The notes under the pieces were generated by a model. The model made no database searches. It was given only the letters and a program-made list of their open reading frames with translations, and was not told where the DNA came from. 64,000 nucleotides of DNA from assembly GCA_018817315.1 (NCBI GenBank), contig JAHITV010000018.1, positions 12,012 through 76,011 of the forward strand, read 5' to 3'. This DNA comes from Patescibacteria group bacterium. GTDB lineage: Bacteria; Patescibacteriota; Patescibacteriia; UBA1558; UBA10009. Below, one piece after another: positions 8,654 to 58,547 of the stretch; the stretch's first letter is position 1, and every line of letters begins with the position of its first letter. The translations under genes were made by a program, and so were the position numbers.

Positions 8654-8753
8654 ATTATCCTTTGATTATAAAAAACCTTGTATCGAATCAAGCTTGATGG
8701 TACAAGGTTTTTTTGTTGCAGACAATTTTAAAATTTTTTGCTATAATAATTAT

Positions 8754-17284: not shown

Positions 17285-18142
17285 ATGGATTTATTAAAAC
17301 AAACCAAATTTTTAATAAAAAAAACAGGACTAAAACCGGATAAATTAAAGGGGCAGAATTTTTGTATTGAGCAAAAAGTGATTGAGGAGATGATTAAGGC
17401 AGCTAACATTTCCCCTCAAGATACAATCATAGAAGTCGGTCCGGGTTTTGGTTTTTTAACCGACAAGTTATGTAATAAAACTAAAGAGGTTATAGCAGTG
17501 GAGCTGGATAAAAAGTTATTTAAGATAGTAAAAAATTTAGAAAAATTTTATAATAACCTGCAGGCCATTGAAGGGGATATCCTAAAATTAAAGATGGAGA
17601 ATTTGTTATCAAGAAAAAGAACAGTTGAAAAATTTCAAAATTATAAAATTGTAGCTAATCTTCCTTATGCTATCTCTTCAGTTTTTTTAAAAAAATTTTT
17701 AACCAGCGATTTTAAACCTCAAGCCATGACTTTGTTATTACAAAAGGAAGTGGCTCAAAGAATTTGCGCTGCCCCTGGAAAAATGAGTCTGCTGGCTTTA
17801 TCAATTCAGCTTTATAGTAAACCTGTTTTGATTAAAATAATATCCAAGGAAAGTTTTTGGCCTGTGCCTCAAGTAGATTCAGCAATCTTAAGGATAGAAA
17901 AGATTCACGCCTTTCCTTTTGCCAAAGAAGTGCCGGAAAAAGTATTTTGGCAGGTAATAAGATCCGGTTTTTGCAGTAAACGCAAACAGCTACATAATAA
18001 TTTAAAGAACAGCTTGCATTTAAATACTGATCAGCTGGACAAAGTCTTTTCCCAAAGTCAATTAAATGAAAAAATTAGGGCTCAAGAACTCTCTCTTAAA
18101 GATTGGTTAAAGTTAGCTAAAAGCTATAATAGACTTTGTTGA
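17285..18142 (+). CDS. rsmA: 16S rRNA (adenine1518/1519-N6)-dimethyltransferase
   Basis: 'GQNFCIEQKVIEEMIKAA' and the SAM motif 'IIEVGPGFGFLT'. Confidence 0.8.
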   Translation: MDLLKQTKFLIKKTGLKPDKLKGQNFCIEQKVIEEMIKAANISPQDTIIEVGPGFGFLTDKLCNKTKEVIAVELDKKLFKIVKNLEKFYNNLQAIEGDILKLKMENLLSRKRTVEKFQNYKIVANLPYAISSVFLKKFLTSDFKPQAMTLLLQKEVAQRICAAPGKMSLLALSIQLYSKPVLIKIISKESFWPVPQVDSAILRIEKIHAFPFAKEVPEKVFWQVIRSGFCSKRKQLHNNLKNSLHLNTDQLDKVFSQSQLNEKIRAQELSLKDWLKLAKSYNRLC

Positions 18143-18167
18143 CGATAAGAAGCAGTCGTGATATAAT
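18139..18167 (+). promoter_or_regulatory. Near-consensus sigma70-type promoter TTGACG-17nt-TATAAT upstream of ORF 18200 and the giant surface-protein/VirB6-like operon
   Basis: TTGACG at 18139-18144, a 17-nt spacer, and TATAAT at 18162-18167. Confidence 0.55.
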
Positions 18168-18199
18168 TTAGTAAGATTTTTATTATTATTTTGGTGAAT

Positions 18200-18997
18200 A
18201 TGCCTAATGAATTTTTACCAGAAGATGATATCTTACTAAATGATAATGAAGTTCAGTCAGATTCAAAAGATAAAAATAAAAGCTTGTCCGGAAAACCCGT
18301 GGGCTTGCTGATTTTGCTTTCAGTTTTGGTAATTGTGGCTTTAATAGTAACAGCCCGTCAATGGGTGCAGAATTTAAAACTTCCTTTTTTAGTTCCTCAA
18401 ACTCAAAGAACCGACAATATCAATATTCTTACTGATAATGATTTAAGTAATTTTTTAGTTCTTCAGGCAAAGGACACTGATAATGATACTTTATCAGACT
18501 ATGATGAACTTTATTTATATTATACTTCACCTTATCTAGAAGATTCTGATTCTGATGGTTTAAATGATGCCGAAGAAATAAAAAATAATACTGATCCTAA
18601 TTGTCCTAAAGGTTCCCAATGTTCTACTGCTGTTGGTCAAACTACACCATCTTCACCGACTTCCCAGTTAAACCTGGAAAGTATAGCTCATTTAACCTCT
18701 GATCAGCTAAGATCATTGTTAATCCAACAAGGAATGTCTGCCGAAGAAGTTGATCAGCTTGATGAGGAAACGTTGCGCAGGACTTTTTTGGAAAACGTTA
18801 ATGATATTTCACCAACTGGCAGCGATTTTTCTTATTTACTTTCCGGCACTGATGTTAATTTAACCCCCGACCAATTAAGACAGCTGTTAATTGGTCAAGG
18901 GGTAAATAAAGAAGAAGTGGATAAATTATCCGATGAAGAATTATCAATTATCTGGCAGCAAGCGCTTGAACAGTTTGAACAAGATAACAACCCTTAA
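18200..18997 (+). CDS. Acidic secreted/membrane-anchored protein with Ca-binding-like DxDxDG repeats and an internal duplication
   Basis: N-terminal TM. 'DTDNDTLSDYDE', 'DSDSDGLNDAEE'. The repeats 'LTSDQLRSLLIQQGMSAEEVDQL' and 'LTPDQLRQLLIGQGVNKEEVDKL' are a duplication. The likely start is ATG 18200 rather than TTG 18191. Confidence 0.4.
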   Translation: MPNEFLPEDDILLNDNEVQSDSKDKNKSLSGKPVGLLILLSVLVIVALIVTARQWVQNLKLPFLVPQTQRTDNINILTDNDLSNFLVLQAKDTDNDTLSDYDELYLYYTSPYLEDSDSDGLNDAEEIKNNTDPNCPKGSQCSTAVGQTTPSSPTSQLNLESIAHLTSDQLRSLLIQQGMSAEEVDQLDEETLRRTFLENVNDISPTGSDFSYLLSGTDVNLTPDQLRQLLIGQGVNKEEVDKLSDEELSIIWQQALEQFEQDNNP

Positions 18998-19013
18998 GTT
19001 TTAAACTAAGTCA

Positions 19014-22000
19014 ATGATAAATTTATCTTCAAAAAGGCAAAAAATAGTTACTATTCTTTTGGCTTTTTTTATCAGTTTTTTGATTTTTAGTAACGTAGCT
19101 GTGCCAAAAATATATGCAGCTATTGATCCTGGCGCCTCTCAGCTTTTAAGTCCGCCTCCTGCGGGCATGCCCGTTGCTGACGTTGCTCTCTATTCCAGAA
19201 GTGTTTGGAAGACCATTTCGGATATGTATAATAAATATTTCCGACAGGCTATTGCCGCAGCATTTAAAACTTCTGCCAAAATTTTCTTAAGTAAAATAGC
19301 TTATGATACAGCTAATTATTTAGCTACCGGAGATGTGGGTCAAAAACCTTTGTATTATACCCAGCCCTGGAAATATTTTATCAAGGATGCTGGCGATGCA
19401 GCATTAGGAGGTTTTTTAGATGAATTAACTAAAGATTTTGGTCGTTTTAATATTTGTGAACCTTCAACTATAAATGTTAAGTTAGCCATACACACTTCCT
19501 TATTTCAAAGCAGGTATCCTATTAAACCTCGCTGTACCTTTAGCGAGATGCAGAAAAACTGGACCAAGTGGCAGCAGGAAGTCCGTCAGGAGCCAGGTAA
19601 ATTTGTCAGAGATTTAAAAGAATCCTTTAATCCCGAAGAAAATGATATAGGAATGTATTTAAGTTTGCATTCTTCTTTGTTAACTGCCCAAGAAGAAGCC
19701 AAGCTTAATGCCTGGTTAGAACGGAGTGTTAATCAGGGCATCAAAGATGTAACCTCGCCTATTACCGGAGCAATTAAAACCCCAGCATTACTATTAGGAG
19801 AGAAATTTGCCACCATGGATGAAAAGACTGGACAGGTTGAATTTACTTATACCGGGGAGATTGTTGATGCTTTTTTAGGGACCTTTACTAACACTTTAAT
19901 GTCTAAATGGATGGATACTTTGTTTAAGAAGGGCTTTAATGTGGCTGAAGAAAGTTCCAGTATTGCCGGCCTATCCAGTGTTTTAAATCAAAGTGGTTAT
20001 AATGTAGAAAGGGCTCAACAGCATTTTGCCAGTTTAGCAGAAGTAAATTTTACCAGCGGTCAGGAAAATGTTTTAAATTTATTAACTTTACCTGCTGTTT
20101 CCATTATTACTGATGCGCCTGCCGGTCCAACCAATGAAGTTATTACTGATCAATTTGCCAGTGCTGTAAGAGAGAAAATAACCTTAAAAGAAGCCATTGA
20201 TAAAGGTTTTATTGATGGGATCAAGCCGGTTGGTTTTGATAATTCAGGTGAACAGCCAAATTATAGGGATGGCTATCCTTACCGCAGTTTAGTGATTTTA
20301 CGTACCCATCGCATTGCACCAGTAGGCTGGGAACTGGCAGCCATGTATCATAAAAAATATGGTGAAACTTCCACAATTAATTTTAATTACTTAATCAATT
20401 GTTATGAGGATCCAACAGATCCAGGTAATCCCTATAAACCTTTTTCTTGCCGCGAAGATACTAATGGTAATGGCATAATCCCAGAAGCTGAAAATAACAG
20501 TAATACCCCGGGTGAAAAAGATTTTAATCCTTATTATCATTTAGTTGATCCTAACTGGGTTTTAAAATCACCAGAAACATACTGTAAACGTAAAGGCCCT
20601 GGTCCGGAAATTGTTAATGATCAAATAGAATGTTTAGCGGATAATGTGAGGGGCACAGCCAATAATCAAACAGATGCAGAGGGCAATGTTATTCAGGTCC
20701 CTATTGATGGGCCTAATTGTCAGGCTGATGTAAATCCGGATTTGCCGGTGCGCGTTGTTCAGCGAAATACTGATTATTGCGGTGATTGGCAAAGTTGTAT
20801 TTTGGAAAACGACGAAGGCAGTTGCGCTGCTTATGGTTATTGTGTAAAAGAAAAACCTATTTGGCATTTTGAGGGAGAACAATGTCCGGCTTATTATAAT
20901 TCCTGTGAAAGTTTTTCAAGCCCCAGTGGTAAACAATATTCTTTTTTAAGAAATACTCTTAAAAACTGCAATCAAAGTGAAGCGGGTTGCGCTTGGTATT
21001 CAACAGCAGCAACACCAGTTTCTGCTACTGAACTTGCTTGGTCGTCGCTGGAAAGAATTTATTTAAACGAAGAGGCACAGTCCTGCGATGGCACTAATGC
21101 CGGCTGTACTAAACTGGGAAGAATGCTACCGGGAATCAACCTGGCTTTTAATGGTAGTTTTAGTGAACCCAGTTCTAATAATTTGCCTTTGGGTTGGCAA
21201 GTAAATCCTGGTGCGCCGGCAAGCTGTAATTATATCCATGACGTTGATACTAAAGAAATGGAAATTAGCGGCAGTTTGGTAAGTGGCCAACATTGTCAAT
21301 TAGACAGTTCCGGTTTTATTCCTCTTAATCCAGAATTTACTTACTCTTTCAGTTATAAAATTAAATCTCCAACGGGAGCAACAGCTTATGTAGGATTAGT
21401 TTATTATGATGCCAATAAAGTTATATGTGGTTCAGGACATGTTGCACCTTGTAATACTCCTTATGGACATGAAATGTTTGACGGTGCTATTAATGTCACC
21501 AGTGGATACACTTATCATCAGTGGGATATTGGCCCTGAAGCCGTTTCTAATGTAGATCTTTTACCCGGAGCAAAATATGTCAAGATTTCCATTAAAGCCC
21601 CGGCAGAATCTGACAGTACAATTTTAATAGATGATATACAGTTTGCCATAGTTAAATCACCTGTTTTAAGTCATAATTTAGAAAATTTTACCATTAATCC
21701 AGAAACTTACCGTTTTGATTACAGTTTAGGGCAAGCTTTTAATTCTTATCTTAAGGTACCGCCTGATTATTTAGATTGCGAAAGCGGGAACAGCGCTTAT
21801 TGTGATAATTATGCTGATGTTTGTCTGCCAGAAGAAGTTGGTTGTCAGGGTTATACTCCTTTGGTCGGCGGTCCAGAAATTCCAGCTAAAACTTCCCCTG
21901 CGGACGTATGTCCTGCTGAATGTAATGGCTATGAGAGTTATTTGCAATTAGTTAATTATTTTGAAGAAATAGAAGATCCCGTAGCTGAACCGATTTATCA

Positions 22001-25000
22001 ATACTTTATTCCCCAGACTGCCACTGAATGCCCGTTACAGGATGTAGGCTGTGAACAGTTCACTAATCTTGACGAAGTAGCGCAAGGCGGTGAAGGGATT
22101 GAGTATTTTACTTATCTTAGGCAGTGTATTTCTGCTAACAGTGGAAACATTCAAGCTTATTTTACTTGGGAAGGATCAGATACTACCGGTTATCAATTAA
22201 AGAAATGGGAGCTCTTAAGAAGTGGTACTAATGCTCCTTGTACTAATATTATAGTAGGTACAGAACAGTGTCAGGATGCTGCTTTTGGTGCTAAAACCTG
22301 TGGGCCGGAAACACCCAGTAATCCTGATGATGATCCGGAAGTTGATCCTAACTGCCGCGATTTTATAGATGCCAGCGGTAATCATTATTTTCGTTTACAA
22401 CAATATTTAATTACTGCTTCGGGTGAATGTCATCCTTACCGCCGTACCGCTACTGGACAGATTTACAATGCTGATCCTTATGAAGGCAAAACCTGCGCTT
22501 CCAGTTCTAACAATTGCCGGGAATATAAAGGTAATATCGGCAATAATGTCCGTAATTTAATTAATGTTGATTTTGAAGACGGTACAGTTGGTAATTTCAC
22601 TAATACTAATGGTTCAACTGCTGGACTAGTAATCAGCAATGAATCAGTTTATCAGTCCGGGCATTCATTAAAGGTTGGTGTTTCTAATGACACTATTGTT
22701 TATCCTTTATCTGGACAGCTTAAAATTAATAGACAGTATAAATTATCTTTTTGGGCAAAGAAGGTGGATATTGGAGCGGGTAATAAGGCAAGTATGGTTT
22801 CTAAGAGTGATAATTCCAAATTCAGATTAGTGGATTTGTTTACCAAAAAAACCAAAGCTCAACCTATGGTTACCATCCTTAGTTTTTCGCAAATAGGCCT
22901 GACTGATGAATGGCAGCTTTATTCTTTGGGTCCGGTGGAGCTGGAAAGTGTTCAACCAGACTCTCAAATGGAATTGACAATTAACGGCTTAACTCCGGCT
23001 GAAGGATTTTATATTGATAACATCATTTTACAGGAATTCATGTCTAATTTTTATGTAATCCGTGATTCCTGGAACACACCTTTATCTTGTGATGAGCCGT
23101 TTGTGGGCGCGCAATTAGGATGTTCAGCTTATCGTGACCGGCAAAATACCATTAATTACCTTAAATCATTTGATTATATTTGTTCTCTTTCCCGCGTTGG
23201 TTGTGAAGCATTCGTTACCACTCAAAATTCTTCCTTAAGTCAGGCAGAACAGACATACTTTGCCACCTGCGATAATTATGTAGGTGAAATAGGAAGTGGT
23301 GCCTGTAGTAATCCTGCTATTCCAGGTAGCGGCAGTTGTTGTACTATCCGAGGCGTGGAAAAATGTAATGTGCCAGGCGGTCAGGATTTTTGCCAGTATG
23401 AAAATATCACTGTACCTAATGATGAACTAATATATTTGATTAATGATGCTGAAAAAACTTGCAATAGCGGTCAAAAAGGTTGTGAAATGATGGGTTCACC
23501 GACACTGGATAGAAGCAATGATTATTTCAGCGGCGGTGATTATGATGATTATTTGGATAATTATATTCAGGGTTATACCACTGCTTATATGATCAATGAT
23601 CCTGATCAATACAGTTCGCAGCTTTGCAGTGAAAGCGGTTTGTTTTGTACTACTTTAACCGGCGAGTTAACCGGCACTAATTATTATTTTGATCCTTATT
23701 CTTTAGGGACAACCGGAGATGACGGAAGTACTGTTGGTTTGACCTGTTATTATGATAGTAGTGCCGGCATCTGGAGAAAAAGTGTTGATGATCAGCCGTG
23801 CAGCGCTACAGAATTTATGTCCATGGTCGGTCAGGAAGATTATGAGGGCTGGGTAGGCTTATGCAGCTCGGCTTATTCCACTTGTACAGAATACCGCGAT
23901 CCTGAACAGCCGGCTTTTGATAAAGCCCAAGAATGCGATGCTACTATTACGCCGCAGATGCGCGGTATTTGTGGTGATGGAGATCATGATGAATCAATAG
24001 TTACGGTTAATGGCAGGAAGTATTGCCAGAAGATAATTAATGGTATTTCGCATAAAGTTTGTCAGATAAGGACTGTTGGAGGTGTGGATGTTCCGTGTCC
24101 TTATACAGAATATGATTGGATTTGTGCTGATTCAGCTATACCCCCAGGAGGTTATTTCTGTAAAGTTCCCGGAACAAGTAAAAATGCTTGTTATGTTGGG
24201 CAGGGGCAGTCTTTATGTTTTTATTCTTTAGCGTGTCAGTCTTACTATTATAAAGCAAAGTCAGTTAAAACCTGTGAAAGCGGCATTGTAGATAGAGAAG
24301 CTGGCTGTTTGCTGTTTAATGATACAAGCAATCCTAATTTAACTTTAAGCAGTAATCTAACAGCTGATGGTCAGTCGCCGCAATCGCCGGTAGCAGGTTG
24401 TAGCAGTGATTATAACAGTGCGGATAATTGTGATGCTAATACTTCTTCTCCCCTTAAAGTAAGAAGAGACCGAGAATGCGCCGAAACACTTTTCTGCACT
24501 TCTTCGGTAGAAGTGACTGATGATCAGGGCAATGCTTCCAGAATTTGTTTAGGCGTTGGTCGCTGTAAAAAAGTAGATCCAGACAATCCTTATAATTGTT
24601 TGGAAATATCTGCCAGTCCAGTTTTGGAAGAACAAACATATTCTTTTAATTTGGCTAATACTTCCGAAGGGGTAGATAGTATCCGTTATCTTTCTGGTTA
24701 TTCTAAAGCAGGGTTGATTTGGAATGATGTGAATGATAATAGAGAAGAGGATGATCTCAAGGATAAAATCATTAAAGGATATTATCCGCCTGAACAGATG
24801 TATCAGCTGGGAGATGATTTAGCAATTAATAATGGCGGCTTTGAAAACACCGGCAATACTGTTGCAGATATCTTGGACTGGTCATTTTTAACAACACCAG
24901 TAGGCAACTGCAGTTATGGTTTGGATAATAACAATCCTTACACCGGCACTTACAGTTTACGTACCCGTCTTAATCAGGACAGTAATTACTGTAATGCTAC

Positions 25001-27326
25001 TAACGGTTTATATAATATTAATCCCGGTAAAAGTTATATTTTCTCTTTTTATGCCCGTTCAGAAAATGGCGCCCAGCGCATCAGGCCAGAAGTACAGTTT
25101 TTTACTGCCAGCGGAGGTTTTATTTCTGCCGCCAGAATAGATGTGTTTCCGTCCCAGCAATGGACATATTACTCCATTATTTTAGGGCCAGACGACGTTA
25201 ATATTCCCAATAATACCCGGAAAGTTAAAATTGCTTTACTTGGTCCGCATTCTGGTGATGGTATTGATAGTAAAGGGGATATCGGTAATGTTTGGTTTGA
25301 TGAAGTGCAGTTTAAGCCAGCTTTAAAAACCGCAGAAAAACAATTGGCAGTTAAAGAGTGTCGTTTGTATCCAGAAGATGATGCTTTGGCTTGCGAATAT
25401 ACAGATTATCAAACTCATCGTGGTTGGTATGGTTATTGCTTGGAGCATGATCCTAAAAATTCTTCGGCCTGTTTGCAATGGTATCCAGTAGATAGCATTG
25501 CCGGAGCATCTTTAGTGACTTTAGGACAAAGCGCTATTGGTTATGATAATCGTTTACCTTTGTATTATTGTTTGCAAAGTGGCGGTAAATATGAAATTGG
25601 TAAAGTCAGTTCACCTAATACAGGATATCTTACCAGCGGTTACAAAATTCAGTCGCATAAAGCTTATTCGCATGAGAATTGTTCAGATTGTCCTCAATGT
25701 GATGCTGGTAATTTTCCGTCTGGTGCACCTGGCCATAATTTTTATTTCTGTGAAGATTCTCATAATTTTACTGACCCAGTAATTACACTGAATTCAGGGG
25801 ATGCTGATTATAAAAATTTTACTGTTGATGATGTTGCTAAAATTACAGTAGATGTGGTTTATCAAGGCGGTGGCTGGTTACCGCCAGGAGAACATAAATT
25901 AAGCGGTCCAAGTTCTGTTACTAATCCTTCTGGTATTCCAGCTGGAAATTATTATAAATTTGTTTATGAACATAATTATCCTCCTCCAGGTGATAATGGC
26001 ACTAACAGTTATAAGGTTGATTTATACTTTGTAGATAGTTTGAGCTCTCCTGATAATAAAAGATTAAAATATATTTATTTCTATTTTAACGATAATACCA
26101 GCGAGAGCGGCGGTGCGACTTTTGATCTTTATTATTATTTGCGTGAACCTTGTCCTTATATTGCTAAGGCAGTCAGAGGAGCTGATGAAGGAGGCAATAT
26201 CAAAGAAAAATCTTGGTATACCCGTTATAAATATGGCTGGAGCACTAGTGCTGGCAATGCCATGGGTTATAACAAAGAAATGACAGAAGATCCTTATGGC
26301 AGTTCACCTGTTTCTGGTACTAATCCAGCTGCTTGGACAGGTCAATACACGCCTTTAACTATTTACCGGGGAGATCCTAGAAATTCAGAAATTAGTGCTC
26401 ATAATTTTTCGGGTATGCCTTTTACTGTGCCGCAAAACACCACTTATCCTCAACGAGTTTGTGTAGGCGGACCTTTGGATAACCAGCCTTGTTTAGATTC
26501 TTATTTAAGCGATGACAGTGATAATGATTGTTATGAAAAAGGCTGTTCCAGTCCTCCTTGTGGCGGAGTGTGCATGGGTGTGGGCAAATACTGCTACAGT
26601 AATCAAACATTTTTAACTAACGGAGATACTTGCAATTCTAATGCAGATTGTTTTGGCGAATATCCTTTTTGCCGCGCACCTAGTTTAACCGTTAATAATG
26701 CACCGCAAGAAGGTTTGCTTCGTTTGCAGCAGTTGTATGCTGATATTTATGGTATCTGGGAATTTGACGAACAGTCTGGTAGATATGATTTGTTATGTTC
26801 AAAAAGTAATCCACTAGCATGTAGTTTAGGCGATACTAATATAGCTGATACTACTGGTACTGCTCCATATATTGGTAATATTAAACTTAATGGTCATACT
26901 GGTGACGTTGATTTAACTGCGCCTGGCGGAGTAGTAAATTTAAGCTTTACTACAGATTTGGATAATGACCACATGCCTTTGGAAAGCGTGGGTATTAACT
27001 GGATGGATGGCGGCGGTGAAGATACTTATGATGTTTCCATGAGTGAACAGCCTGCTGATTCTAATCCTCACCGTTTAGCTCATTTTTACGGCTGCGTGCC
27101 TAACAGTGAAGGAGATCATTGTGTTTTCTGCTGGGATGCCGCTACTAATAGCTGGATAGATTCGTATGATGGCAGCTGTACTTATCAAGGTCCTTGGATA
27201 ACTGTGCAGGATCATTGGGAATGGTGCCCTGATGGTTATCAGGGAGATGATTATACTTGCGATCCTAGATCAAATGGCATCCAATATTTGGGAGGCAGAA
27301 TTCATATTAATCCGCGAACTTTTTAA
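19014..27326 (+). CDS. Giant (2770 aa) cysteine-rich extracellular protein with at least three CBM4/9-like carbohydrate-binding beta-sandwich modules
   Basis: N-terminal TM/signal. More than 150 Cys. Three 'N(G)GFE...W' modules at about aa 730, 1190 and 1960 ('INNGGFENTGNTVADILDWSF'). The gene abuts the next ORF with zero spacing. Confidence 0.6.
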   Translation: MINLSSKRQKIVTILLAFFISFLIFSNVAVPKIYAAIDPGASQLLSPPPAGMPVADVALYSRSVWKTISDMYNKYFRQAIAAAFKTSAKIFLSKIAYDTANYLATGDVGQKPLYYTQPWKYFIKDAGDAALGGFLDELTKDFGRFNICEPSTINVKLAIHTSLFQSRYPIKPRCTFSEMQKNWTKWQQEVRQEPGKFVRDLKESFNPEENDIGMYLSLHSSLLTAQEEAKLNAWLERSVNQGIKDVTSPITGAIKTPALLLGEKFATMDEKTGQVEFTYTGEIVDAFLGTFTNTLMSKWMDTLFKKGFNVAEESSSIAGLSSVLNQSGYNVERAQQHFASLAEVNFTSGQENVLNLLTLPAVSIITDAPAGPTNEVITDQFASAVREKITLKEAIDKGFIDGIKPVGFDNSGEQPNYRDGYPYRSLVILRTHRIAPVGWELAAMYHKKYGETSTINFNYLINCYEDPTDPGNPYKPFSCREDTNGNGIIPEAENNSNTPGEKDFNPYYHLVDPNWVLKSPETYCKRKGPGPEIVNDQIECLADNVRGTANNQTDAEGNVIQVPIDGPNCQADVNPDLPVRVVQRNTDYCGDWQSCILENDEGSCAAYGYCVKEKPIWHFEGEQCPAYYNSCESFSSPSGKQYSFLRNTLKNCNQSEAGCAWYSTAATPVSATELAWSSLERIYLNEEAQSCDGTNAGCTKLGRMLPGINLAFNGSFSEPSSNNLPLGWQVNPGAPASCNYIHDVDTKEMEISGSLVSGQHCQLDSSGFIPLNPEFTYSFSYKIKSPTGATAYVGLVYYDANKVICGSGHVAPCNTPYGHEMFDGAINVTSGYTYHQWDIGPEAVSNVDLLPGAKYVKISIKAPAESDSTILIDDIQFAIVKSPVLSHNLENFTINPETYRFDYSLGQAFNSYLKVPPDYLDCESGNSAYCDNYADVCLPEEVGCQGYTPLVGGPEIPAKTSPADVCPAECNGYESYLQLVNYFEEIEDPVAEPIYQYFIPQTATECPLQDVGCEQFTNLDEVAQGGEGIEYFTYLRQCISANSGNIQAYFTWEGSDTTGYQLKKWELLRSGTNAPCTNIIVGTEQCQDAAFGAKTCGPETPSNPDDDPEVDPNCRDFIDASGNHYFRLQQYLITASGECHPYRRTATGQIYNADPYEGKTCASSSNNCREYKGNIGNNVRNLINVDFEDGTVGNFTNTNGSTAGLVISNESVYQSGHSLKVGVSNDTIVYPLSGQLKINRQYKLSFWAKKVDIGAGNKASMVSKSDNSKFRLVDLFTKKTKAQPMVTILSFSQIGLTDEWQLYSLGPVELESVQPDSQMELTINGLTPAEGFYIDNIILQEFMSNFYVIRDSWNTPLSCDEPFVGAQLGCSAYRDRQNTINYLKSFDYICSLSRVGCEAFVTTQNSSLSQAEQTYFATCDNYVGEIGSGACSNPAIPGSGSCCTIRGVEKCNVPGGQDFCQYENITVPNDELIYLINDAEKTCNSGQKGCEMMGSPTLDRSNDYFSGGDYDDYLDNYIQGYTTAYMINDPDQYSSQLCSESGLFCTTLTGELTGTNYYFDPYSLGTTGDDGSTVGLTCYYDSSAGIWRKSVDDQPCSATEFMSMVGQEDYEGWVGLCSSAYSTCTEYRDPEQPAFDKAQECDATITPQMRGICGDGDHDESIVTVNGRKYCQKIINGISHKVCQIRTVGGVDVPCPYTEYDWICADSAIPPGGYFCKVPGTSKNACYVGQGQSLCFYSLACQSYYYKAKSVKTCESGIVDREAGCLLFNDTSNPNLTLSSNLTADGQSPQSPVAGCSSDYNSADNCDANTSSPLKVRRDRECAETLFCTSSVEVTDDQGNASRICLGVGRCKKVDPDNPYNCLEISASPVLEEQTYSFNLANTSEGVDSIRYLSGYSKAGLIWNDVNDNREEDDLKDKIIKGYYPPEQMYQLGDDLAINNGGFENTGNTVADILDWSFLTTPVGNCSYGLDNNNPYTGTYSLRTRLNQDSNYCNATNGLYNINPGKSYIFSFYARSENGAQRIRPEVQFFTASGGFISAARIDVFPSQQWTYYSIILGPDDVNIPNNTRKVKIALLGPHSGDGIDSKGDIGNVWFDEVQFKPALKTAEKQLAVKECRLYPEDDALACEYTDYQTHRGWYGYCLEHDPKNSSACLQWYPVDSIAGASLVTLGQSAIGYDNRLPLYYCLQSGGKYEIGKVSSPNTGYLTSGYKIQSHKAYSHENCSDCPQCDAGNFPSGAPGHNFYFCEDSHNFTDPVITLNSGDADYKNFTVDDVAKITVDVVYQGGGWLPPGEHKLSGPSSVTNPSGIPAGNYYKFVYEHNYPPPGDNGTNSYKVDLYFVDSLSSPDNKRLKYIYFYFNDNTSESGGATFDLYYYLREPCPYIAKAVRGADEGGNIKEKSWYTRYKYGWSTSAGNAMGYNKEMTEDPYGSSPVSGTNPAAWTGQYTPLTIYRGDPRNSEISAHNFSGMPFTVPQNTTYPQRVCVGGPLDNQPCLDSYLSDDSDNDCYEKGCSSPPCGGVCMGVGKYCYSNQTFLTNGDTCNSNADCFGEYPFCRAPSLTVNNAPQEGLLRLQQLYADIYGIWEFDEQSGRYDLLCSKSNPLACSLGDTNIADTTGTAPYIGNIKLNGHTGDVDLTAPGGVVNLSFTTDLDNDHMPLESVGINWMDGGGEDTYDVSMSEQPADSNPHRLAHFYGCVPNSEGDHCVFCWDAATNSWIDSYDGSCTYQGPWITVQDHWEWCPDGYQGDDYTCDPRSNGIQYLGGRIHINPRTF

Positions 27327-30300
27327 ATGAATTTTTTAAAGTTACAATTAAAATTTTTGCCTAAAAAAAAGATATTTTTAATTCTGTTCAGTTTAGTAGT
27401 TATGGTAATTTTCTTGGGGTTTGCCACAAATTTTAGTTTTGCCCAAGAAACATTACCGGAAGCATATGATAAAGCTGATTTTGGGCGATTAAGTTCAGAG
27501 ATAGGATGGTTTGCGGCAATTATCGGCTCGTTTTTGTTATGGATTGTCGGTCTTTTAGCAGGAATATTGTTATGGTTAATGGATTTAGTAGTATCTATCT
27601 TTCAGTATAATGATTTTATCCATGCCCAAGCAGTGGAGATTGGCTGGCCTTTGGTAAGAGATCTTTGCAACATGTTTTTTGTGGTAATAATTTTGGTTAT
27701 TGCCTTTTCCACTATTTTGCGGATTTCCACTTACCATTACCGGAGTACTTTGCTTAAACTGGTGATTATGGCCATTCTTATTAATTTTTCCAAAACTATT
27801 TTAGGATTTGTTATTGATTTTGCCCAGGTGATTATGCTGACTTTTGTTAATGGTTTTAGGGAAGCGGCTTTACTTAATCTAGAAAAATCTTTTGGCATTA
27901 GCAGTTGGCTTAGTATAGGAGAAGTAGCTCCGAACAAAGGACTTTCCTGGGCAGCGGTTATAGGGGCTTTGTTATTGTCAGTGATTTTGGCGGTAGTGGC
28001 AATTTTTACTATGCTGGTGTATTTGGTTTTACTGTTACAACGTATTATAACTTTGTGGATTTTAGTAATTATTTCTCCTATTGCTTTTTTGGGCACTGCT
28101 TTCCCTGCTTTGGCAAAATTTACCTCCCAATTTTGGCAGAGATTTTGGCAAATGATAACTTTGGGAATAACCATGGCTTTTTTTATGTGGCTTTCTTTAA
28201 CTGTATTATCCATGGCAGGCAGTAGTAATAGAAATTTAGCAGATGAATTTGAGGCTTCAAAAAGATACGAACAAATTAGCGGAGCTAAGCCCACTTATCA
28301 AATTACGGCCAGCAAGGTAAGTGACAGCGAACAGATGTTTGTGTTTGTTGTAGCTATAGCTTTATTGTTATTGGGTTTACAGTTTGCCGGTGAAGCCAGT
28401 GGCGTAGCTGGTAAATTTGCCGGCGCTGTTAGCGGTAAACTTTCTAGTTTTGGTGCCAAAGCAGCTAAACTGCCGTTTAAAGGCGCCTGGGGTTTGGCGA
28501 AAGAAGGAACTGATTTGCTTTATGAAAAAACAGGTTGGATGGATTTGAATATGAAAAGAAACTGGGAAAAATTTCAAACAGTTATGGGAGGCAGGAAAGG
28601 TAAACAGTTGCAAAAAGGTTTACAAAAGTCCATAGAAAGAGCTAGGGAAGGCGGTTTTATTAGTTCTCGTTTAGCGGCTTTAACTGGAGGCGTAGGCGAT
28701 CATTTTGATAATTATGGTTGGTGGAAAGGTATAGGTAGATTAACACGTCCTGGTTTAATGGGACGGAGAGCTAAAGAAAGAGGAGAAGAAAAAGAAAAAG
28801 AAGCTGAAAAACCAGCAGAAGAAGCAACTACTCTTTCAAAACTTGCTAAATATGGCGGCGTCAATGAAAGTTATTTAGCTAAAGGCATGGAGGATATAGC
28901 AACGCACAGAGCATGGTTAGAAAAAGAAAGAGAGAAGATAGAATCCGAAGGAGGAGATACAACCGAGATTGAAAATAGTTTAAGACAATTGGAAAATGAA
29001 GGATATATTTTACAGGCACATTTAGTTTTAAAGGATGTGGATCTTAATGAAGCAACATCAGAAGAGGTTTATAATAAATTAGAGGAGGAAAAAAGCAAGA
29101 TTGAGACGGAGTATAAAGATAATAATTCAACAATTAAAAGAATTGATGAGCAAATTAAGGAACTTGAGGAAAAGAAAAAAGAAAAAGAAGAAAAAGGACA
29201 AGAGTGGAAAGCTATTGAGCAAGAAAAATTAGAAAATTTTCAGTCAAAAAGATTAGAACTAACACAAAGACAAGATACTTTAAATAGGACTAAAATAGGA
29301 ATAGGAACATTAGGGAATGATCCTGAGAAAATAAAAGAGGCGCTTGATAAAAAAGCTTCTAAACATGGAGATGAAAATATAAGAAGAGTAAGTGCTCGTA
29401 GAAAAGCGTTGCAGAAAGCTATAGATGAAAAGAAAATTGATCCGTCAAGTGTTGGACGAGCTAAAAAACAGCTAGTAGACATGGATGCCGAGTTAGTATT
29501 CTTGAATGAACAAAGAAAATTAAAACGTTATGTTTCAAAGGATCAAAAGGATGAATGGTCCGAACAAGCTGAAGAAAAAGATAAAAAAGCAAGAAGATTA
29601 AGAGGTAAGGCAGCTAAGATAAGACCAGTTGTTGGTTTTGAAGCGCAAAGAGCCAGGCGCGCTTTAGAAGCAGAAGAATTAAAAAAGATAGCTGATGTAG
29701 AAGAACAGTCAGAACAAAACAGTCTTTTAGAGGAAGCAATAGCCAGGAAAGATAAACCTAGAATTGCCGCTATTATGAAAAAGATGGCGGCTACTAGTAA
29801 TGATAATGAATTTTTAAATCATTTTGGTTATGACTCTGGCTTTAATGGTTTTAAGGAATTTTTTGAAAAAGAAATAAAAGACAGAGCTGGTTTTAGTGAA
29901 CAGGAAATGTTGGCTACAGCTAATGACATTGCTTATATTAATGAGTCAGTAAAACACTGGAACACTGCCAGAATGTGCGCTATGGATAAGGGTAAATGGC
30001 GTTGGCATACTGAACCAGAGCATGTAATGAATGCCGGTACAGAAACCAGTAAACTTACAGAAAGGCAAGTAGTGACTTTTAATCGTTTAGGTTTTGGCGG
30101 AGAAGACCCCAGAACTGGCAAATATAAAATGGATGGGTTAGGCAAATTTATGGTAAGAACACATGGTTCGGCCTGGCTTGATAATCCCCGTTTAATTTTG
30201 GAGCAGGCTAATAGCAGCATGGTGCAAAAGTTGTTGGAATCAGAGCATAATTACGGGCAACTTACTCAAGCTTTGGCAGGTATGATGTATAAGGTTAAAA

Positions 30301-30455
30301 AGAATAGTGAATTTGCCGGTCATAAGGAAGGAGAAACAGTAAAAATGATAGACGCAATAACGCATTTATTCAACCAAAGAATGACCTCTCTTGCCAAAAA
30401 ATCAACATCCGAGATTACAGAGGAAGTGATGGAAAATATGGGACGTGAATCATAG
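27327..30455 (+). CDS. VirB6/TrbL-like polytopic membrane protein with a long charged coiled-coil C-terminal extension
   Basis: About 8 N-terminal TM helices followed by a K/E-rich coiled coil. It sits in a T4SS-like context and is translationally coupled to the giant protein. Confidence 0.4.
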   Translation: MNFLKLQLKFLPKKKIFLILFSLVVMVIFLGFATNFSFAQETLPEAYDKADFGRLSSEIGWFAAIIGSFLLWIVGLLAGILLWLMDLVVSIFQYNDFIHAQAVEIGWPLVRDLCNMFFVVIILVIAFSTILRISTYHYRSTLLKLVIMAILINFSKTILGFVIDFAQVIMLTFVNGFREAALLNLEKSFGISSWLSIGEVAPNKGLSWAAVIGALLLSVILAVVAIFTMLVYLVLLLQRIITLWILVIISPIAFLGTAFPALAKFTSQFWQRFWQMITLGITMAFFMWLSLTVLSMAGSSNRNLADEFEASKRYEQISGAKPTYQITASKVSDSEQMFVFVVAIALLLLGLQFAGEASGVAGKFAGAVSGKLSSFGAKAAKLPFKGAWGLAKEGTDLLYEKTGWMDLNMKRNWEKFQTVMGGRKGKQLQKGLQKSIERAREGGFISSRLAALTGGVGDHFDNYGWWKGIGRLTRPGLMGRRAKERGEEKEKEAEKPAEEATTLSKLAKYGGVNESYLAKGMEDIATHRAWLEKEREKIESEGGDTTEIENSLRQLENEGYILQAHLVLKDVDLNEATSEEVYNKLEEEKSKIETEYKDNNSTIKRIDEQIKELEEKKKEKEEKGQEWKAIEQEKLENFQSKRLELTQRQDTLNRTKIGIGTLGNDPEKIKEALDKKASKHGDENIRRVSARRKALQKAIDEKKIDPSSVGRAKKQLVDMDAELVFLNEQRKLKRYVSKDQKDEWSEQAEEKDKKARRLRGKAAKIRPVVGFEAQRARRALEAEELKKIADVEEQSEQNSLLEEAIARKDKPRIAAIMKKMAATSNDNEFLNHFGYDSGFNGFKEFFEKEIKDRAGFSEQEMLATANDIAYINESVKHWNTARMCAMDKGKWRWHTEPEHVMNAGTETSKLTERQVVTFNRLGFGGEDPRTGKYKMDGLGKFMVRTHGSAWLDNPRLILEQANSSMVQKLLESEHNYGQLTQALAGMMYKVKKNSEFAGHKEGETVKMIDAITHLFNQRMTSLAKKSTSEITEEVMENMGRES

Positions 30456-30483
30456 TTGAAATTTTTAATAATTTAAGCACAGT

Positions 30484-31758
30484 ATGAATAATTTAGAAAC
30501 TTTATTAATAGACCCTAAATTAAAAAATGAATTCAAAGGTTTAATTAAACAGACTTTGGGTATGATTGATGTGGCTGAAAATTTTAGATTGACGCGAGGT
30601 ATTGAAAAAGAAATGAATAATTTAAGCCCTGAAACCAAGAAAATTTTTGATGAAGAAATTAAACCTTTATTGATTAAGCTTAAATGGCGGGCATTTCCCA
30701 GATTAAAACAGGGACAAGTTTTGGATCTTTTGGAAAACCATCTTTTAGTTACTAAAGAATTTAAAGAAATTGATGATAGGATTTTGGATATTAAACAAGC
30801 TGTCAACAATCATTTATTGCAAATTATTGATCATGATGAAAGGGATAGATTTAAAATATTAGTTAGGCAGACGTTATTGGTTAATAAGGAAGTGGTGGAT
30901 GAAAGTTTGGCAGTTAAAACTGTAGGCGAATGGTTTAAAAATATAATTTCTCAAGTTGGTCCGCAATTAACAGACCGTCTTAAAGAAAGCGAATATTATT
31001 TAAGGGATAGTAATTTTACTAAATTATCAAAAATTGATCAGCAATTTTTAAAAGGAGTATTCAGTTTATATAAATACTGTCTTTATTCATCTATTACACC
31101 CGAAGGCCTGGATGAAACAATTACCGTGATTGAAGATGGGAAAATGAAGGTTATCCGTCAGGGTATGATTGAGGAAATTCCTTCTTTAGATAAGGAGGAT
31201 CTGGAATTTATTACTGGCTTAGGAGGAACCGCTGTAGGAGCCAAAGAAGAAACAAAGTATCAATCGTTAACCCAGCATTATCATTCTTTGTTGGATAAAT
31301 TAGTTAAAAAAGAACAGTTAAAAGCAGTTAAATTAAAATCATCGGTTGCAGAAATTTTGGCGGAAAGAATTAATAAAGCTTTAGAGCAAAAAGAGCAAAC
31401 AGTGGTTTTAGCTGGTTTAGAAAGATTGATACAAATAAAACAGTTGGCTAAAATTTTAGAAAATAAAAATTTTAATCAGATTTTTAAAAAATATTTAATT
31501 TCCAAGTTTGGTCAGTTTAATGAGGAAATGATTAAAAAGTTTACGGTTGAAGTTTTTGCTCTGTTATTACAATTTATTTTTATTGATCAATTAAGGAATA
31601 CCGAGGAAGAAGGAGCAGTGTTAGTATTATATATAGCTAATCTTCTGGCTAAACAGGGAAATGATCAGTATTTAGTCGCCGTGTACGGCGATTCTAAAAG
31701 CAATTCTTTTAAATGGCGGGAGATAAAAATCGGGCAGGGACAATTAAAATTTGGATAA
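30484..31758 (+). CDS. Hypothetical protein (424 aa)
   Basis: Long ORF with no recognisable motif. Confidence 0.4.
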   Translation: MNNLETLLIDPKLKNEFKGLIKQTLGMIDVAENFRLTRGIEKEMNNLSPETKKIFDEEIKPLLIKLKWRAFPRLKQGQVLDLLENHLLVTKEFKEIDDRILDIKQAVNNHLLQIIDHDERDRFKILVRQTLLVNKEVVDESLAVKTVGEWFKNIISQVGPQLTDRLKESEYYLRDSNFTKLSKIDQQFLKGVFSLYKYCLYSSITPEGLDETITVIEDGKMKVIRQGMIEEIPSLDKEDLEFITGLGGTAVGAKEETKYQSLTQHYHSLLDKLVKKEQLKAVKLKSSVAEILAERINKALEQKEQTVVLAGLERLIQIKQLAKILENKNFNQIFKKYLISKFGQFNEEMIKKFTVEVFALLLQFIFIDQLRNTEEEGAVLVLYIANLLAKQGNDQYLVAVYGDSKSNSFKWREIKIGQGQLKFG

Positions 31759-31790: not shown

Positions 31791-32349
31791 AATTAACTCT
31801 TTCTATGTATTCACCGGTTTCGGTGTTTATTTTAATGATTTCACCTTCTTTAATGAATAAAGGGACTTTAATTTGTCTATCAGTTTCCATGGTCACCAGT
31901 TTGCTGGCAGATCCTGCAGTATCACCTTTAATAGCAGGAGGACTTTGAGTTACTTTTAGCGCTACCTTAACTGGCAGTTTTACAGTCACTGGTTTATTTT
32001 CATAAACTAAAACATCAACGTTCATGCCTTCCTTTAAAAAATTTGCCGCAGTTCCTATTACTTCTTTATTTAAACTAAACTGCTCATAAGTATCATTATA
32101 CATGAAGTGATAATCCTCATTTTCTTTATAAAGAAAACTGGCTTTAAGATTTTCCAGCTGGGCTTCTTCAATTTTATCTGCGCCAGAAAAAGTAATTTCC
32201 AAATTTTGCCCGGTAATAAGATTTTTGAGTTTAGTTTTCAAATTAGCGCCGCCTCTGCCCATTTTTACATGTTGAGCGTAAATCACCAGATAAGGATACC
32301 CTTTGTAGTTAATAGTTGTGCCTAGTTTAATGTCATTTATTGATAGCAT
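31789..32349 (-). CDS. efp: Elongation factor P
   Basis: 186 aa. The N-terminal 'MLSINDIKLGTTINYKGYPYLVIYAQHVKMGRGGANLKTKLKNL' is the canonical EF-P pattern with a KPG-loop-like region. Confidence 0.85.
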   Translation of the reverse strand: MLSINDIKLGTTINYKGYPYLVIYAQHVKMGRGGANLKTKLKNLITGQNLEITFSGADKIEEAQLENLKASFLYKENEDYHFMYNDTYEQFSLNKEVIGTAANFLKEGMNVDVLVYENKPVTVKLPVKVALKVTQSPPAIKGDTAGSASKLVTMETDRQIKVPLFIKEGEIIKINTETGEYIERVN

Positions 32350-37021: not shown

Positions 37022-37101
37022 TATATTTTAAGTCAATATAAGGTTGACTTAAAGTTAAACTTTTGTTAAACTTTTATTATTAAGAAGCTAACTGATAAAT
37101 T

Positions 37102-37320
37102 ATGAGCAATATAATAGGTTTAAAAGAGTTAAGGCAAAATATGCCGGCTTATGCTAAAAAAGTTGAAAAAGGTCAATCTTTTGTGGTAGTTAAACAATCT
37201 AAGCCTTTGTTTAAAATCACTCCCTTGGAACAGGAAAGCGAGGAATGGGAGGAAGTAATTGATTTTACCAAAATTAAAAGAGGCGGAGTTAAATTAGATC
37301 AGCTACTTAGTCGTCTCTGA
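37102..37320 (+). CDS. Phd/YefM-family type II antitoxin
   Basis: 72 aa. 'LKELRQNMPAYAKKVEKGQSFVVVKQSKPLFKITPLE' fits the Phd pattern. It lies 4 nt upstream of the toxin. Confidence 0.55.
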   Translation: MSNIIGLKELRQNMPAYAKKVEKGQSFVVVKQSKPLFKITPLEQESEEWEEVIDFTKIKRGGVKLDQLLSRL

Positions 37321-37324
37321 ATTT

Positions 37325-37573: not shown

Positions 37574-37578
37574 TTTGT

Positions 37579-38799: not shown

Positions 38800-38802
38800 T
38801 AT

Positions 38803-40338: not shown

Positions 40339-40341
40339 TTT

Positions 40342-56819: not shown

Positions 56820-57989
56820 ATGGTAGATGATAATTTACAATTAGATGACCTGACAGAAGAAATGATTATTAGGGATGAAGAGGGAAATTATAAAATCCTT
56901 AAAGACGGTAAATTATTGCCTTATCCAGCAAAAATCACACTTTCTCTCCCTCAATCAGCGCTACCCAAAGAAGAAGAAAAAGAAGTCAGTCAGTCAGTTA
57001 TTAAAACTGCTCAAGGTCATCCGGCTCTACAGCCGCCAGTGCCTGCTACTATTAGCAAAAAAGGAGCTGCTTTTTATTTTGCTCCCGAAGATGAAGAAGA
57101 AGTAGCAAAAATAAAATTACCTAAAGATACAATTCCCTCAAAAAAATATTCTTTGGATAAGATCCTAACTAAAGTTATTGTAAATAATGAAATAGAAAAT
57201 TTGTCGGAGGAAATAAAGTCAAGGTTAAAGAATGCTATCTTTTCCTATTTAAGAGATAGAAGGACTTTCGTGGATATGTCGGAGATTTTAAAACGTTCTC
57301 AAAGTAATGGCGGGTTAGAATTTGATCAATTGCTGGCAGAAAAAATAATGAGTTTTTTAAAAGAGGTTAAGGATAAAATTACTCAAGAGAAAGGTTTAGT
57401 TATTAAAGAGGAAATTAGCAAAATTGCTTTAAAAGAGCAATTAGTGCCGCCAGTTAGAAAAGTTCCTCCTGTGGTAGTAGATATTCCTAAGCCAAAAGAG
57501 GTAGAAATTAAAGCAAGGCCACCAAAAATTGAACTAATAAAAAAAGTTGAACCAATAAAAATAAAAAAGCAGGTTAAAGCACTACCAGTTAAACAGCCAG
57601 TCCGTCCTCAACGTGCTGTTAAGGAAGGCAAAGTTGCCATGAGGGATGTTCGTAAAGATTATAAATTAGTTGGGCCGGTAGAAGAGCTAGTTAGTCTTTC
57701 TTTGCAGACTTTGCATAGACTTGCGTCTAAACCCCAGGAACAAGTCCAAAAAATCCTGGAAAAGATTAATCGTTTAGGTGAAGATTCATTGGCAAAAAAA
57801 ACTGCCGGTATTCAGGGTTGGCGACGCAGTCCTTTGTATAAGATGTATTTAGCTATTGGACAGGCCAGCATGGAACATGGAGTTTCAGTAAAAGATATAA
57901 TTAATCAATATCATGCCCAGGGTAAAGATATCTTAACCATGGAAGAATTTGAGACAATTTCTGATATTAATAAAAAATTAAGATTTTAA
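56820..57989 (+). CDS. Hypothetical protein (389 aa; Pro/Lys-rich central region)
   Basis: Long ORF with no recognised motif. Confidence 0.4.
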   Translation: MVDDNLQLDDLTEEMIIRDEEGNYKILKDGKLLPYPAKITLSLPQSALPKEEEKEVSQSVIKTAQGHPALQPPVPATISKKGAAFYFAPEDEEEVAKIKLPKDTIPSKKYSLDKILTKVIVNNEIENLSEEIKSRLKNAIFSYLRDRRTFVDMSEILKRSQSNGGLEFDQLLAEKIMSFLKEVKDKITQEKGLVIKEEISKIALKEQLVPPVRKVPPVVVDIPKPKEVEIKARPPKIELIKKVEPIKIKKQVKALPVKQPVRPQRAVKEGKVAMRDVRKDYKLVGPVEELVSLSLQTLHRLASKPQEQVQKILEKINRLGEDSLAKKTAGIQGWRRSPLYKMYLAIGQASMEHGVSVKDIINQYHAQGKDILTMEEFETISDINKKLRF

Positions 57990-58100: not shown

Positions 58101-58547
58101 ATGCAACAATTTACCGTGCCACAATTTATTGAAGTAGAAGATAAAATTATCGGACCAATTACTGTACGTCAGTTTATTATTATGATTATTGGTGGTTTAT
58201 TTATGTTTTTAGAATATAAGTTATCTGATTTTGTTTTATTTCTTATCTTAGCCATACCTACTTTTGTTATTTTTGGAACTTTTGCCTTTTTAAAAATAAA
58301 TGGTATGCCTTTTCAATATTTTGTACTTAATGTGGTGGAAACTTTAAAAAAACCAAAGATCAGAGTTTGGTTAAAGGAGATTATTACTCCCACTGTTAAG
58401 AAAAAAAACAAGGAAGAACATCCCATTGAGTCATTACCTATAGAAAAACCATTAACAAAATCAAGAATTTCGGATATATCTTTAATAGTTGATACTGGTG
58501 GTATTTATAAGGGTGAAAGCCCGACGGCATCAGAATTTAAAAAATAA
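58101..58547 (+). CDS. Small two-TM membrane protein, VirB3/PrgI-like (T4SS) by size, topology and position
   Basis: 148 aa with two adjacent TM helices, immediately upstream of VirB4. Confidence 0.35.
   Translation: MQQFTVPQFIEVEDKIIGPITVRQFIIMIIGGLFMFLEYKLSDFVLFLILAIPTFVIFGTFAFLKINGMPFQYFVLNVVETLKKPKIRVWLKEIITPTVKKKNKEEHPIESLPIEKPLTKSRISDISLIVDTGGIYKGESPTASEFKK

Follow-up and report, generated by a model that had tools for sequence, protein, structure and literature searches.

A giant cysteine-rich protein encoded next to a VirB6-like gene, a candidate surface adhesin of the Patescibacterial type IV secretion system

The stretch of DNA analysed here, referred to as the window, covers 64,000 nucleotides (nt) of contig JAHITV010000018.1 (assembly GCA_018817315.1) from an ultra-small bacterium recorded as Patescibacteria group bacterium. 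The interval 18139-31758 within it contains four genes, all on the + strand, with intergenic gaps of 16, 0 and 28 nt in the open reading frame (ORF) calls. The second gene encodes a giant protein of 2770 amino acids (aa) and the third a polytopic membrane protein of 1042 aa, which sequence and model comparisons predict to be an extended VirB6. We regard it as fairly probable that the giant is a Sec-exported surface adhesin of the Patescibacterial type IV secretion system (T4SS), docked on VirB6, and that the four genes represent the envelope and surface half of the apparatus.

Results

Conservation of the gene pair

The proteins of the window were mapped onto 80 species-level loci, sampled from at least 553 found around relatives of the VirB6-like protein. 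The closest relatives were labelled Komeilibacteria, Falkowbacteria and Uhrbacteria. Upstream sequence of at least 3 kb was available at 60 loci, and in 49 of these a giant gene was situated upstream of the VirB6-like gene and on the same strand; in 17 of the 49 the two genes abutted or overlapped (-106 to +29 nt). In the window zero nt lie between them, the stop codon of the giant occupying 27324-27326 and the ATG of the VirB6-like gene beginning at 27327. This direct TAA/ATG junction (27324-27329) bears out the abutting stop and ATG reported in a preliminary description of this DNA. The two genes may be co-translated.

In 33 of 50 loci the block orf389-prgI-traC-like-virB4-orf194 was located no more than 10 kb downstream. 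The 268-aa protein encoded by the first gene of the unit had a homologue directly 5' of the giant in 16 of the 17 loci with enough flank, and also in locus L087; for the 424-aa protein encoded by the last gene, 23 of 63 loci had a homologue directly 3' of the VirB6-like gene. Two look-ups centred on the giant in distant lineages gave the order leuS-tsaC-ksgA-small protein-giant-VirB6-like-...-PrgI-TraC-like-VirB4. As the giant/VirB6 pair is contiguous with the VirB4 set in many relatives, a single contiguous cluster is the widespread state and probably the original one. In relatives of the class ABY1 the cluster has radA and recG as neighbours, as published.

Directly 5' of the VirB6-like gene, 57 of 84 related loci were also seen to encode a small membrane protein of about 110-270 aa (e.g., L001 9341-9988, L003 9404-9991 and L060 1972-2559, with 54 other loci). 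It carries a conserved 'LG.EW.P' stretch and a C-terminal transmembrane (TM) helix with a GCC/GCCC cluster, and has no Pfam match. The window has no detectable homologue of it; in its place stands the giant, which abuts the VirB6-like gene.

The giant protein

Cysteine makes up 3.75% of the giant (104 Cys), as compared with 0.19-0.75% of its three operon neighbours, and the protein is thus Cys-rich as previously described. In its family the Cys content has a median of 3.8% (range 2.8-5.9%), and the family alignment contains dozens of invariant Cys columns, which fits structural disulfides of an extracellular protein. A Sec-type signal peptide was present in 32 of 32 homologues with aligned N-termini, and cleavage of the giant would be expected at KIYA/AIDP. 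The N-terminal domain was shared by all 119 aligned homologues and was placed N-terminally in every one of the 150 matches listed. An exhaustive search with aa 1-450 returned 1239 clusters (50% identity, E<=1e-3), in which this domain was always placed N-terminally, whether the protein was a giant or evidently a fragment of one.

A word-indexed search gave 394 homologues of the giant, the best 120 of which were all 2298-3660 aa long and all from Patescibacteria. The alignments with these cover as much as 99% of the giant and, together with an identical 2770-aa protein in NCBI (KKF32_01995), they indicate that the giant ORF is uninterrupted, as the preliminary description had assumed. An identical copy of the VirB6-like protein (KKF32_02000) is also recorded, under Patescibacteria group bacterium.

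When the whole giant was compared with PF02018 (CBM_4_9), a score of 59.9 bits was obtained (E 4.3e-16, cut-off 25.9). A piecewise Pfam scan placed carbohydrate-binding module (CBM)-like matches at three sites (Table 1); the earlier count of at least three such modules is therefore upheld, with two above the cut-off and module 1 below it. Carbohydrate binding by these modules is predicted from sequence. The architecture is conserved across nearly the whole length of the protein, the least conserved stretches among the 119 homologues being module 1 (to which only about 57-76 of them align), aa ~1600-1750 and aa ~2200-2550. Inspection of the C-terminus (...GGRIHINPRTF) revealed neither an LPXTG motif nor a TM segment. 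Pfam, NCBIfam and PDB searches detected no catalytic, toxin or other known domain in the 2770 residues, PDB sequence searches with the giant and its two N-terminal profiles gave nothing relevant, and NCBIfam gave no match for the three large genes of the unit.

No recent internal repeats were found by self-comparison of the giant. A Cys motif, C-x5-GC-x2-[YFL], recurs at aa 652, 691, 937, 1006 and 1390, and in the family alignment the Cys columns 652/659 and 691/698 do not vary. These features suggest that a small disulfide-knotted spacer unit is repeated, one for which Pfam has no model.

The G+C content across window positions 20000-28000, where the giant gene lies, is 0.385-0.40, against 0.32-0.33 around it. 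Since synteny is conserved, this probably reflects the Cys/Gly/Pro-rich composition of the protein and not recent transfer.

The VirB6-like protein

The 1042-aa protein is composed of a polytopic membrane domain and a hydrophilic tail of 640 residues. The preliminary description had given it roughly eight TM segments and a long coiled-coil tail, which agrees with the 7-8 hydrophobic segments found and with the charged region at aa ~421-760, for which a PDB profile search matched only coiled-coil proteins such as SMC. The first hydrophobic helix looks like a signal or an anchor. The C-terminal region (aa ~761-1042), conserved up to about aa 1000, gave no family match except a spurious one to SYF2, and the tail is probably cytoplasmic.

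A near-invariant core was shared by 119 of 119 homologues (GW..VRD.xNMFF and LINFSK....G..ID..Q..MLTF.N). At E<=0.01 (best 5e-7), PF04610 (TrbL) was matched by 12 of 52 aligned homologues, the core identity of which is 32-55%. PF19590/PF04610 matches were precomputed on about 25 among the 120 homologues listed, and a weak TrbL_3 match is recorded on the homologue at locus L087. The AlphaFold2 (AF2) model of aa 1-420 consists of long helices, with a predicted local distance difference test score (pLDDT) of 73.6 and a predicted TM-score (pTM) of 0.65. When this model was searched with Foldseek against the whole PDB, the seven best matches were all chains of the R388 stalk in entries 7o3v, 8rtd and 8rt9 (E 6e-3, prob 1.0, TM 0.51 on target), which we take from their chain length to be TrwI/VirB6.

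The remaining T4SS genes

The remainder of the T4SS was found at 56.8-63.8 kb of the window, about 25 kb downstream of the giant/VirB6 pair. It includes PrgI/VirB3-like, VirB4-like and VirB2-like pilin proteins (Table 1), in accordance with the T4SS-like module that had been proposed. Homologues of the 228-aa protein carry a precomputed PF26593 TraC-like match, and the homologue of the 194-aa protein comes after virB4 in related loci. In a Pfam scan of the ORFs of at least 100 aa, covering nearly all of the window, no relaxase or type IV coupling protein (T4CP) domain was found. As judged from these matches, the genes correspond to the Patescibacteria-type T4SS set, i.e., VirB4, PrgI/VirB3, a TrsD/TraC-like protein and a VirB2-like pilin, chromosomal and with no relaxase.

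According to the Pfam scan, the four-gene unit is flanked on its 5' side by leuS, a gene for a major facilitator superfamily (MFS) transporter, tsaC/sua5 and ksgA, and on its 3' side, on the opposite strand, by efp, ssb and rpsF. With housekeeping genes on both sides, the setting is chromosomal. A tblastn search of 72,556 plasmids with the N-terminus of the giant and the VirB6-like core gave no real match, R388 not being part of this plasmid collection. This result and the housekeeping genes on either side speak against a conjugative element of recent acquisition.

The approximately 25 kb between the two halves of the T4SS are taken up by efp, ssb, rpsF and an array of ten tandem paralogues of about 400-535 aa (35465-43503, 44563-46023 and 48130-53745, within window 35465-56793). 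In each of the ten, only a C-terminal phosphohistidine swivel domain of the phosphoenolpyruvate (PEP)-utilizer type was recognized (E ~1e-24), and the N-terminal part is unannotated. Accompanying the paralogues are a gene of the APH/choline-kinase-like type (45935-47005), a HAD hydrolase gene (54526-55143) and a gene for a stand-alone PPDK_N ATP-grasp protein (55813-56793). Among 50 related loci, 12 have a similar array 3' of the VirB6-like gene.

The VirB5 gene position

In the annotation of pTiC58 of A. tumefaciens, virB5 is situated directly 5' of virB6. The giant occupies this VirB5 gene position, with a Sec signal peptide. A DUF4141 match (PF13605, AQxxVxDP) was found at the mature N-terminus of P0122 (aa 5-26, 28.7 bits, cut-off 30, E 8e-7), with weaker scores in the giants of L072 (19.4 bits) and L079 (14.8 bits). 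DUF4141 is recorded on 8 of 59 homologues of A. tumefaciens VirB5, which are bona fide VirB5 minor pilins, and is also the family of the gene beside traJ in Bacteroides conjugative transposons. One giant begins ANAQFVVSDPGSL, and A. tumefaciens VirB5 begins ARAQFVVSDPAT.

Other features of the unit and the window

The 268-aa protein scored below the cut-off for TSP3_bac (22.7 bits, E 9e-5, cut-off 25). No Pfam match, even at E<=1, was found for the 424-aa protein and the other small cluster proteins. A near-consensus promoter had been noted before the unit, and a match (TTGACG-17-TATAAT, 11/12) does lie in the gap between the ksgA stop and the first gene (18191). As for its strength, two matches of that grade (>=11/12) occur in the window and 3.1 in Markov resamples, i.e., they are no rarer than by chance; the promoter therefore lacks statistical support, and only its position argues for it. 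Likewise, terminator-like sites were as frequent in shuffled sequence as in the window, so the hairpin 3' of the last gene is a weak candidate.

About 5 kb upstream of the unit, on the - strand, a wall hydrolase of 461 aa with two LysM and a Peptidase_M23 domain is encoded (11464-12849). VirB1-like proteins of Patescibacterial T4SS carry M23/LysM domains according to a 2025 survey (PMC12102498). A PilT-like T2SSE ATPase (365 aa, E 5.6e-45) at 8694-9791 points to type IV pilus machinery apart from the T4SS set. A surface/cobalamin-type gene cluster at 4671-8653 comprises a prenyltransferase/SQHop-cyclase-like plus DUF4430 protein, an Ig-like (HYDIN/Cep192-type) protein, the corrinoid adenosyltransferase BtuR, a second DUF4430 protein and a DUF6580 protein; it is adjoined by a class II B12-dependent ribonucleotide reductase gene at 1348-4224.

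Table 1. Positions in the window of the four-gene unit, the domains of its products and the remaining T4SS genes
Feature	Position	Strand	Details
Sigma-70-like promoter match	18139..18167	+	TTGACG-17-TGnTATAAT; 11/12 matches, best within 17-33 kb
Gene 1, single-pass membrane protein of 268 aa bearing TSP3 repeats of the bacterial, calcium-binding type	18191..18997	+	TM aa 37-55
Gene 2, giant 2770-aa secreted Cys-rich protein	19014..27326	+	ORF
Giant: predicted Sec-type signal peptide, aa 1-35	19014..19118	+	basic n-region, hydrophobic core, ...KIYA/AIDP; hydrophobic segment aa 11-29
Giant: N-terminal domain, aa ~57-450	19182..20363	+	conserved, Cys-poor, mostly helical; degenerate motif MPVADV at start
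Giant: CBM_4_9-like module 1, aa ~705-880	21126..21653	+	match aa ~709-801, 20.9 bits, E 5e-4, sub-threshold
Giant: CBM_4_9-like module 2, aa ~1175-1340	22536..23033	+	match aa ~1182-1250, 28.2 bits, above 25.9
Giant: CBM_4_9-like module 3, aa ~1930-2085	24801..25268	+	match aa ~1938-2054, 28.6 bits, above cut-off
Giant: C-terminal region, aa ~2550-2770	26661..27326	+	conserved (conservation map); no Pfam match
TAA/ATG junction, giant to VirB6-like gene	27324..27329	+	...TTT TAA ATG AAT...
Gene 3, 1042-aa polytopic membrane protein (VirB6-like)	27327..30455	+	ORF
VirB6-like: VirB6/TrbL-like polytopic membrane domain, aa 1-400	27327..28526	+	7-8 hydrophobic segments, aa 16-355
VirB6-like: charged coiled-coil-like linker, aa ~421-760	28587..29606	+	22% K+R, 21% D+E; variable in family
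VirB6-like: C-terminal globular region, aa ~761-1042	29607..30455	+	aligned in ~60% of homologues
Gene 4, 424-aa soluble helical protein	30484..31758	+	no Pfam/NCBIfam match
Terminator-like hairpin then T run, 3' of last gene	31812..31825	+	weak
389-aa conserved T4SS-cluster protein	56820..57989	+	homologue precedes prgI in related loci; no Pfam match
PrgI/VirB3-like protein	58101..58547	+	PF12666, 42.9 bits, E 7e-11
228-aa TraC-like/TrsD-like protein, resembles VirB4 N-terminus	58579..59265	+	faint TraC_F_IV, E 0.019
VirB4-like ATPase	59304..61187	+	P-loop_TraG E 4.5e-32, AAA_10, DUF87
Two small conserved cluster proteins, 194 aa (61196-61780) and 294 aa (61750-62634)	61196..62634	+	no Pfam match
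372-aa protein with T4SS pilin/TrbC (VirB2-like) domain	62650..63768	+	PF18895 37.9 bits, E 1.9e-9; TrbC E 1e-4

Discussion

Relation to known systems

The preliminary description had interpreted the giant and its neighbour as a T4SS-linked adhesin and its membrane partner, and this interpretation is supported on its computationally testable elements. The four-gene extent of the unit, the VirB5 gene position of the giant and the T4SS remainder in the window were absent from that first reading.

The Patescibacterial T4SS is essential for epibiotic growth in the saccharibacterium Southlakia epibionticum (PMC10633639), the one genetically tractable species (PMC11665869), and its function has been described as completely unknown (PMC11665869, PMC12857230). 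The 2025 survey of the surroundings of virB4 reported VirB4, TrsD, VirB3, VirB6, VirB8, VirB1 and VirB2-like pilins; no adhesins such as PrgB were detected, VirB5 occurred only in one genome with a Gram-negative-type system, and a giant protein is not mentioned (PMC12102498). Literature on large or Cys-rich proteins of Patescibacteria or the Candidate Phyla Radiation (CPR) yielded general remarks only, with no link to T4SS genes found. The giant/VirB6 association thus appears to be undescribed within the literature searched, the T4SS itself having been published (2023, 2025).

The apparatus of the window shares with the published Patescibacteria-clade T4SS, which is MPF_FATA-related, the chromosomal set of VirB4, PrgI, TrsD/TraC-like, VirB6 and VirB2-like proteins, neither a relaxase nor a coupling protein being found in the vicinity (Wang et al. 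2023, PMC10633639; Quinonero-Coronel et al. 2025, PMC12102498). It differs in that a secreted family of 2300-3660 aa regularly adjoins the VirB6 gene and in that the cluster is here split by about 25 kb. Extended VirB6 proteins, such as the MPF_FA homologues of 700-900 aa and Rickettsia RvhB6, also combine a polytopic core with a large hydrophilic C-proximal extension (PMC12857230), whereas the tail found here consists of a charged coiled coil and a conserved globular domain with no known match, in a copy that lies below all profile thresholds.

The giant resembles PrgB of pCF10 and other T4SS-linked adhesins in being a large surface protein, presumed to mediate cell-cell contact, that is encoded with a monoderm T4SS. 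However, it has no LPXTG motif and no PrgB-like Pfam domain or sequence match, and its Cys-rich CBM architecture is unrelated. With the large Cys-rich extracellular proteins of CPR bacteria, as in Peribacteria (PMC4736985) and Vampirococcus (PMC8080830), it has the signal peptide, the size and the presumed attachment role in common. No T4SS link was reported for those proteins, whereas the family of the giant is defined by a specific N-terminal domain and fixed VirB6 synteny.

Proposed arrangement of the apparatus

The apparatus would belong to the chromosomal, non-conjugative T4SS-like type typical of Patescibacteria. In the membrane, the 7-8-helix domain of the VirB6-like protein could form a platform or the base of a channel, and its coiled coil and C-terminal domain may reach into the cytoplasm and make the link to the VirB4 side. 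Sec would export the giant, which would become oxidised and take an elongated form braced by disulfides. Its N-terminal helical domain would dock either at the VirB6 platform or at the VirB2-like pilus tip, the classical place of VirB5. Since the giant has no membrane or wall anchor, it would have to be held via this N-terminal domain at VirB6 or the pilus. The three CBM_4_9-type beta-sandwich modules and the variable segments could then contact glycans or other surface structures of a host or partner. In short, we infer surface location, VirB6 docking, carbohydrate binding and a role in host attachment for the giant.

Points against a T4SS-docked adhesin

Several results weigh against this interpretation. 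The 1042-aa protein of the window itself had no Pfam match, either whole (E<=0.01) or with aa 1-420 (E<=10), and no NCBIfam or PDB sequence match, and its family profile returned only coiled-coil noise from the PDB. The PF04610 check was thus negative for the window's copy, and the VirB6-like identity proposed in the preliminary description holds through the members of the family that do match. Comparison of the family with the single A. tumefaciens VirB6 by hhalign gave no signal, a single sequence being too weak a target for this to be informative. The Foldseek E-values of the R388 matches are weak, and the model behind them is only moderately confident. For aa 1-700 of the giant the AF2 model is helical and of low confidence (pLDDT 60.7, pTM 0.34), so that its N-terminal domain is poorly modelled, and no fold match was obtained with it in Foldseek (best E 0.099, prob 0.15). 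The jelly roll of CBM_4_9 is generic as a fold and so says little about the binding specificity of the predicted modules. In 11 of the 60 loci no giant was found within 10 kb upstream, and in the window the VirB4 half lies about 25 kb from the giant/VirB6 pair. Finally, the physical contact between the giant and VirB6 is a putative one.

The comparison with VirB5 has to be read with similar caution. The giant of the window has no DUF4141 match but only the degenerate MPVADV, and the strict motif was present in 14 of 195 giants (2.1 expected), a small minority. With the motif included, hhalign aligned the giant N-terminus to VirB5 at E 0.0086 over 22 columns, and without it nothing was aligned. 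No PDB sequence match to a VirB5-type body was found for the giant N-terminus, nor did Foldseek find one with the low-confidence model.

The giant as a homologue of VirB5 was rejected: in the hhalign comparison the likeness is confined to a motif of about 20 residues, and the helical-bundle body of about 220 aa is unmatched. For VirB5 itself, a pentamer is believed to sit on that of VirB6 and to arrive finally at the tip of the pilus (PMC12857230). The giant shares with VirB5/TrwJ on the VirB6 (TrwI) pentamer (R388 stalk, PDB 7O3V) the gene position, the Sec signal peptide and the proposed role of a tip adhesin, but it is 2770 aa long against about 220 aa, the likeness extends over at most about 20 residues, no fold match was found with the low-confidence model, and the motif is degenerate in the window. 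It could be imagined, as a doubtful extension of the proposal, that the giant is the Patescibacterial VirB5 equivalent, in which a VirB5-type N-terminal docking segment was fused to or expanded into a stalk of about 2,500 residues, braced by disulfides and bearing lectin-like modules. That such a giant seats on VirB6, is lifted on the VirB2-like pilus and forms the host-contact tip is equally doubtful; if true, its variable modules would set the host range.

Other explanations

The most serious rival, the physical link between the two proteins being only putative, is that the giant is an independent envelope protein (an S-layer-like coat, for example, a fibre that spans the wall or an adhesin of a general type), which shares no more than a transcript with the VirB6-like gene and has no interaction with the T4SS. 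Extracellular proteins that are large and Cys-rich occur commonly in the genomes of CPR bacteria (PMC4736985, PMC8080830), the two genes have others between them, including those of tRNA synthetases, in 32 of 49 loci, and the homology of the giant to T4SS structural proteins amounts to a short motif. Such independence is difficult to reconcile with a linkage that has been kept in 49 of 60 loci although the giants share only 27-50% identity, with genes that abut or overlap in 17 loci, and with a giant that has no anchor of its own. In addition, the T4SS would otherwise have neither an adhesin nor VirB5 (PMC12102498). We therefore consider an independent envelope protein to be rather unlikely.

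Another possibility is that the giant is cargo, i.e., an effector, a toxin or a glycan-processing protein, which passes first through Sec and is then released by the T4SS or delivered by it to the host, in the manner of pertussis toxin and Ptl. The Ptl precedent for two-step export, in which the cargo has been proposed as a VirB5 analogue (PMC12857230), would agree with the Sec signal peptide and the missing anchor, and CBM modules often accompany glycoside hydrolases. However, Pfam, NCBIfam and PDB searches revealed no catalytic or toxin domain in the 2770 residues, the architecture is conserved end to end like that of a structural protein, and a second step across an outer membrane is not needed in Patescibacteria, which are described as monoderm. 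A cargo function is thus quite improbable.

That the 1042-aa protein has nothing to do with the T4SS, being a transporter or a scaffold of the membrane, and that its T4SS assignment is an annotation artefact could be argued from the missing sequence matches of the window's copy, from one homologue named 'DMT family transporter' by its source and from Foldseek E-values of only about 1e-2, but it is highly improbable given the TrbL matches in the family (with TrbL_3 precomputed on many members), the seven top PDB fold matches all to R388 stalk entries, and the tight synteny with PrgI, TraC-like and VirB4 genes.

Implications

Surveys centred on virB4, which consider +/-20 genes and known hidden Markov models (HMMs), miss large lineage-specific components; in the window the giant and VirB6-like genes are about 25 genes away from virB4. 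So far the giant, as a putative T4SS adhesin docked on VirB6, is the strongest candidate for the host-contact component that the Patescibacterial T4SS-like machine has been missing. It would fill the adhesin/VirB5 gap in the published inventory and could provide a direct experimental handle on host recognition and host range.

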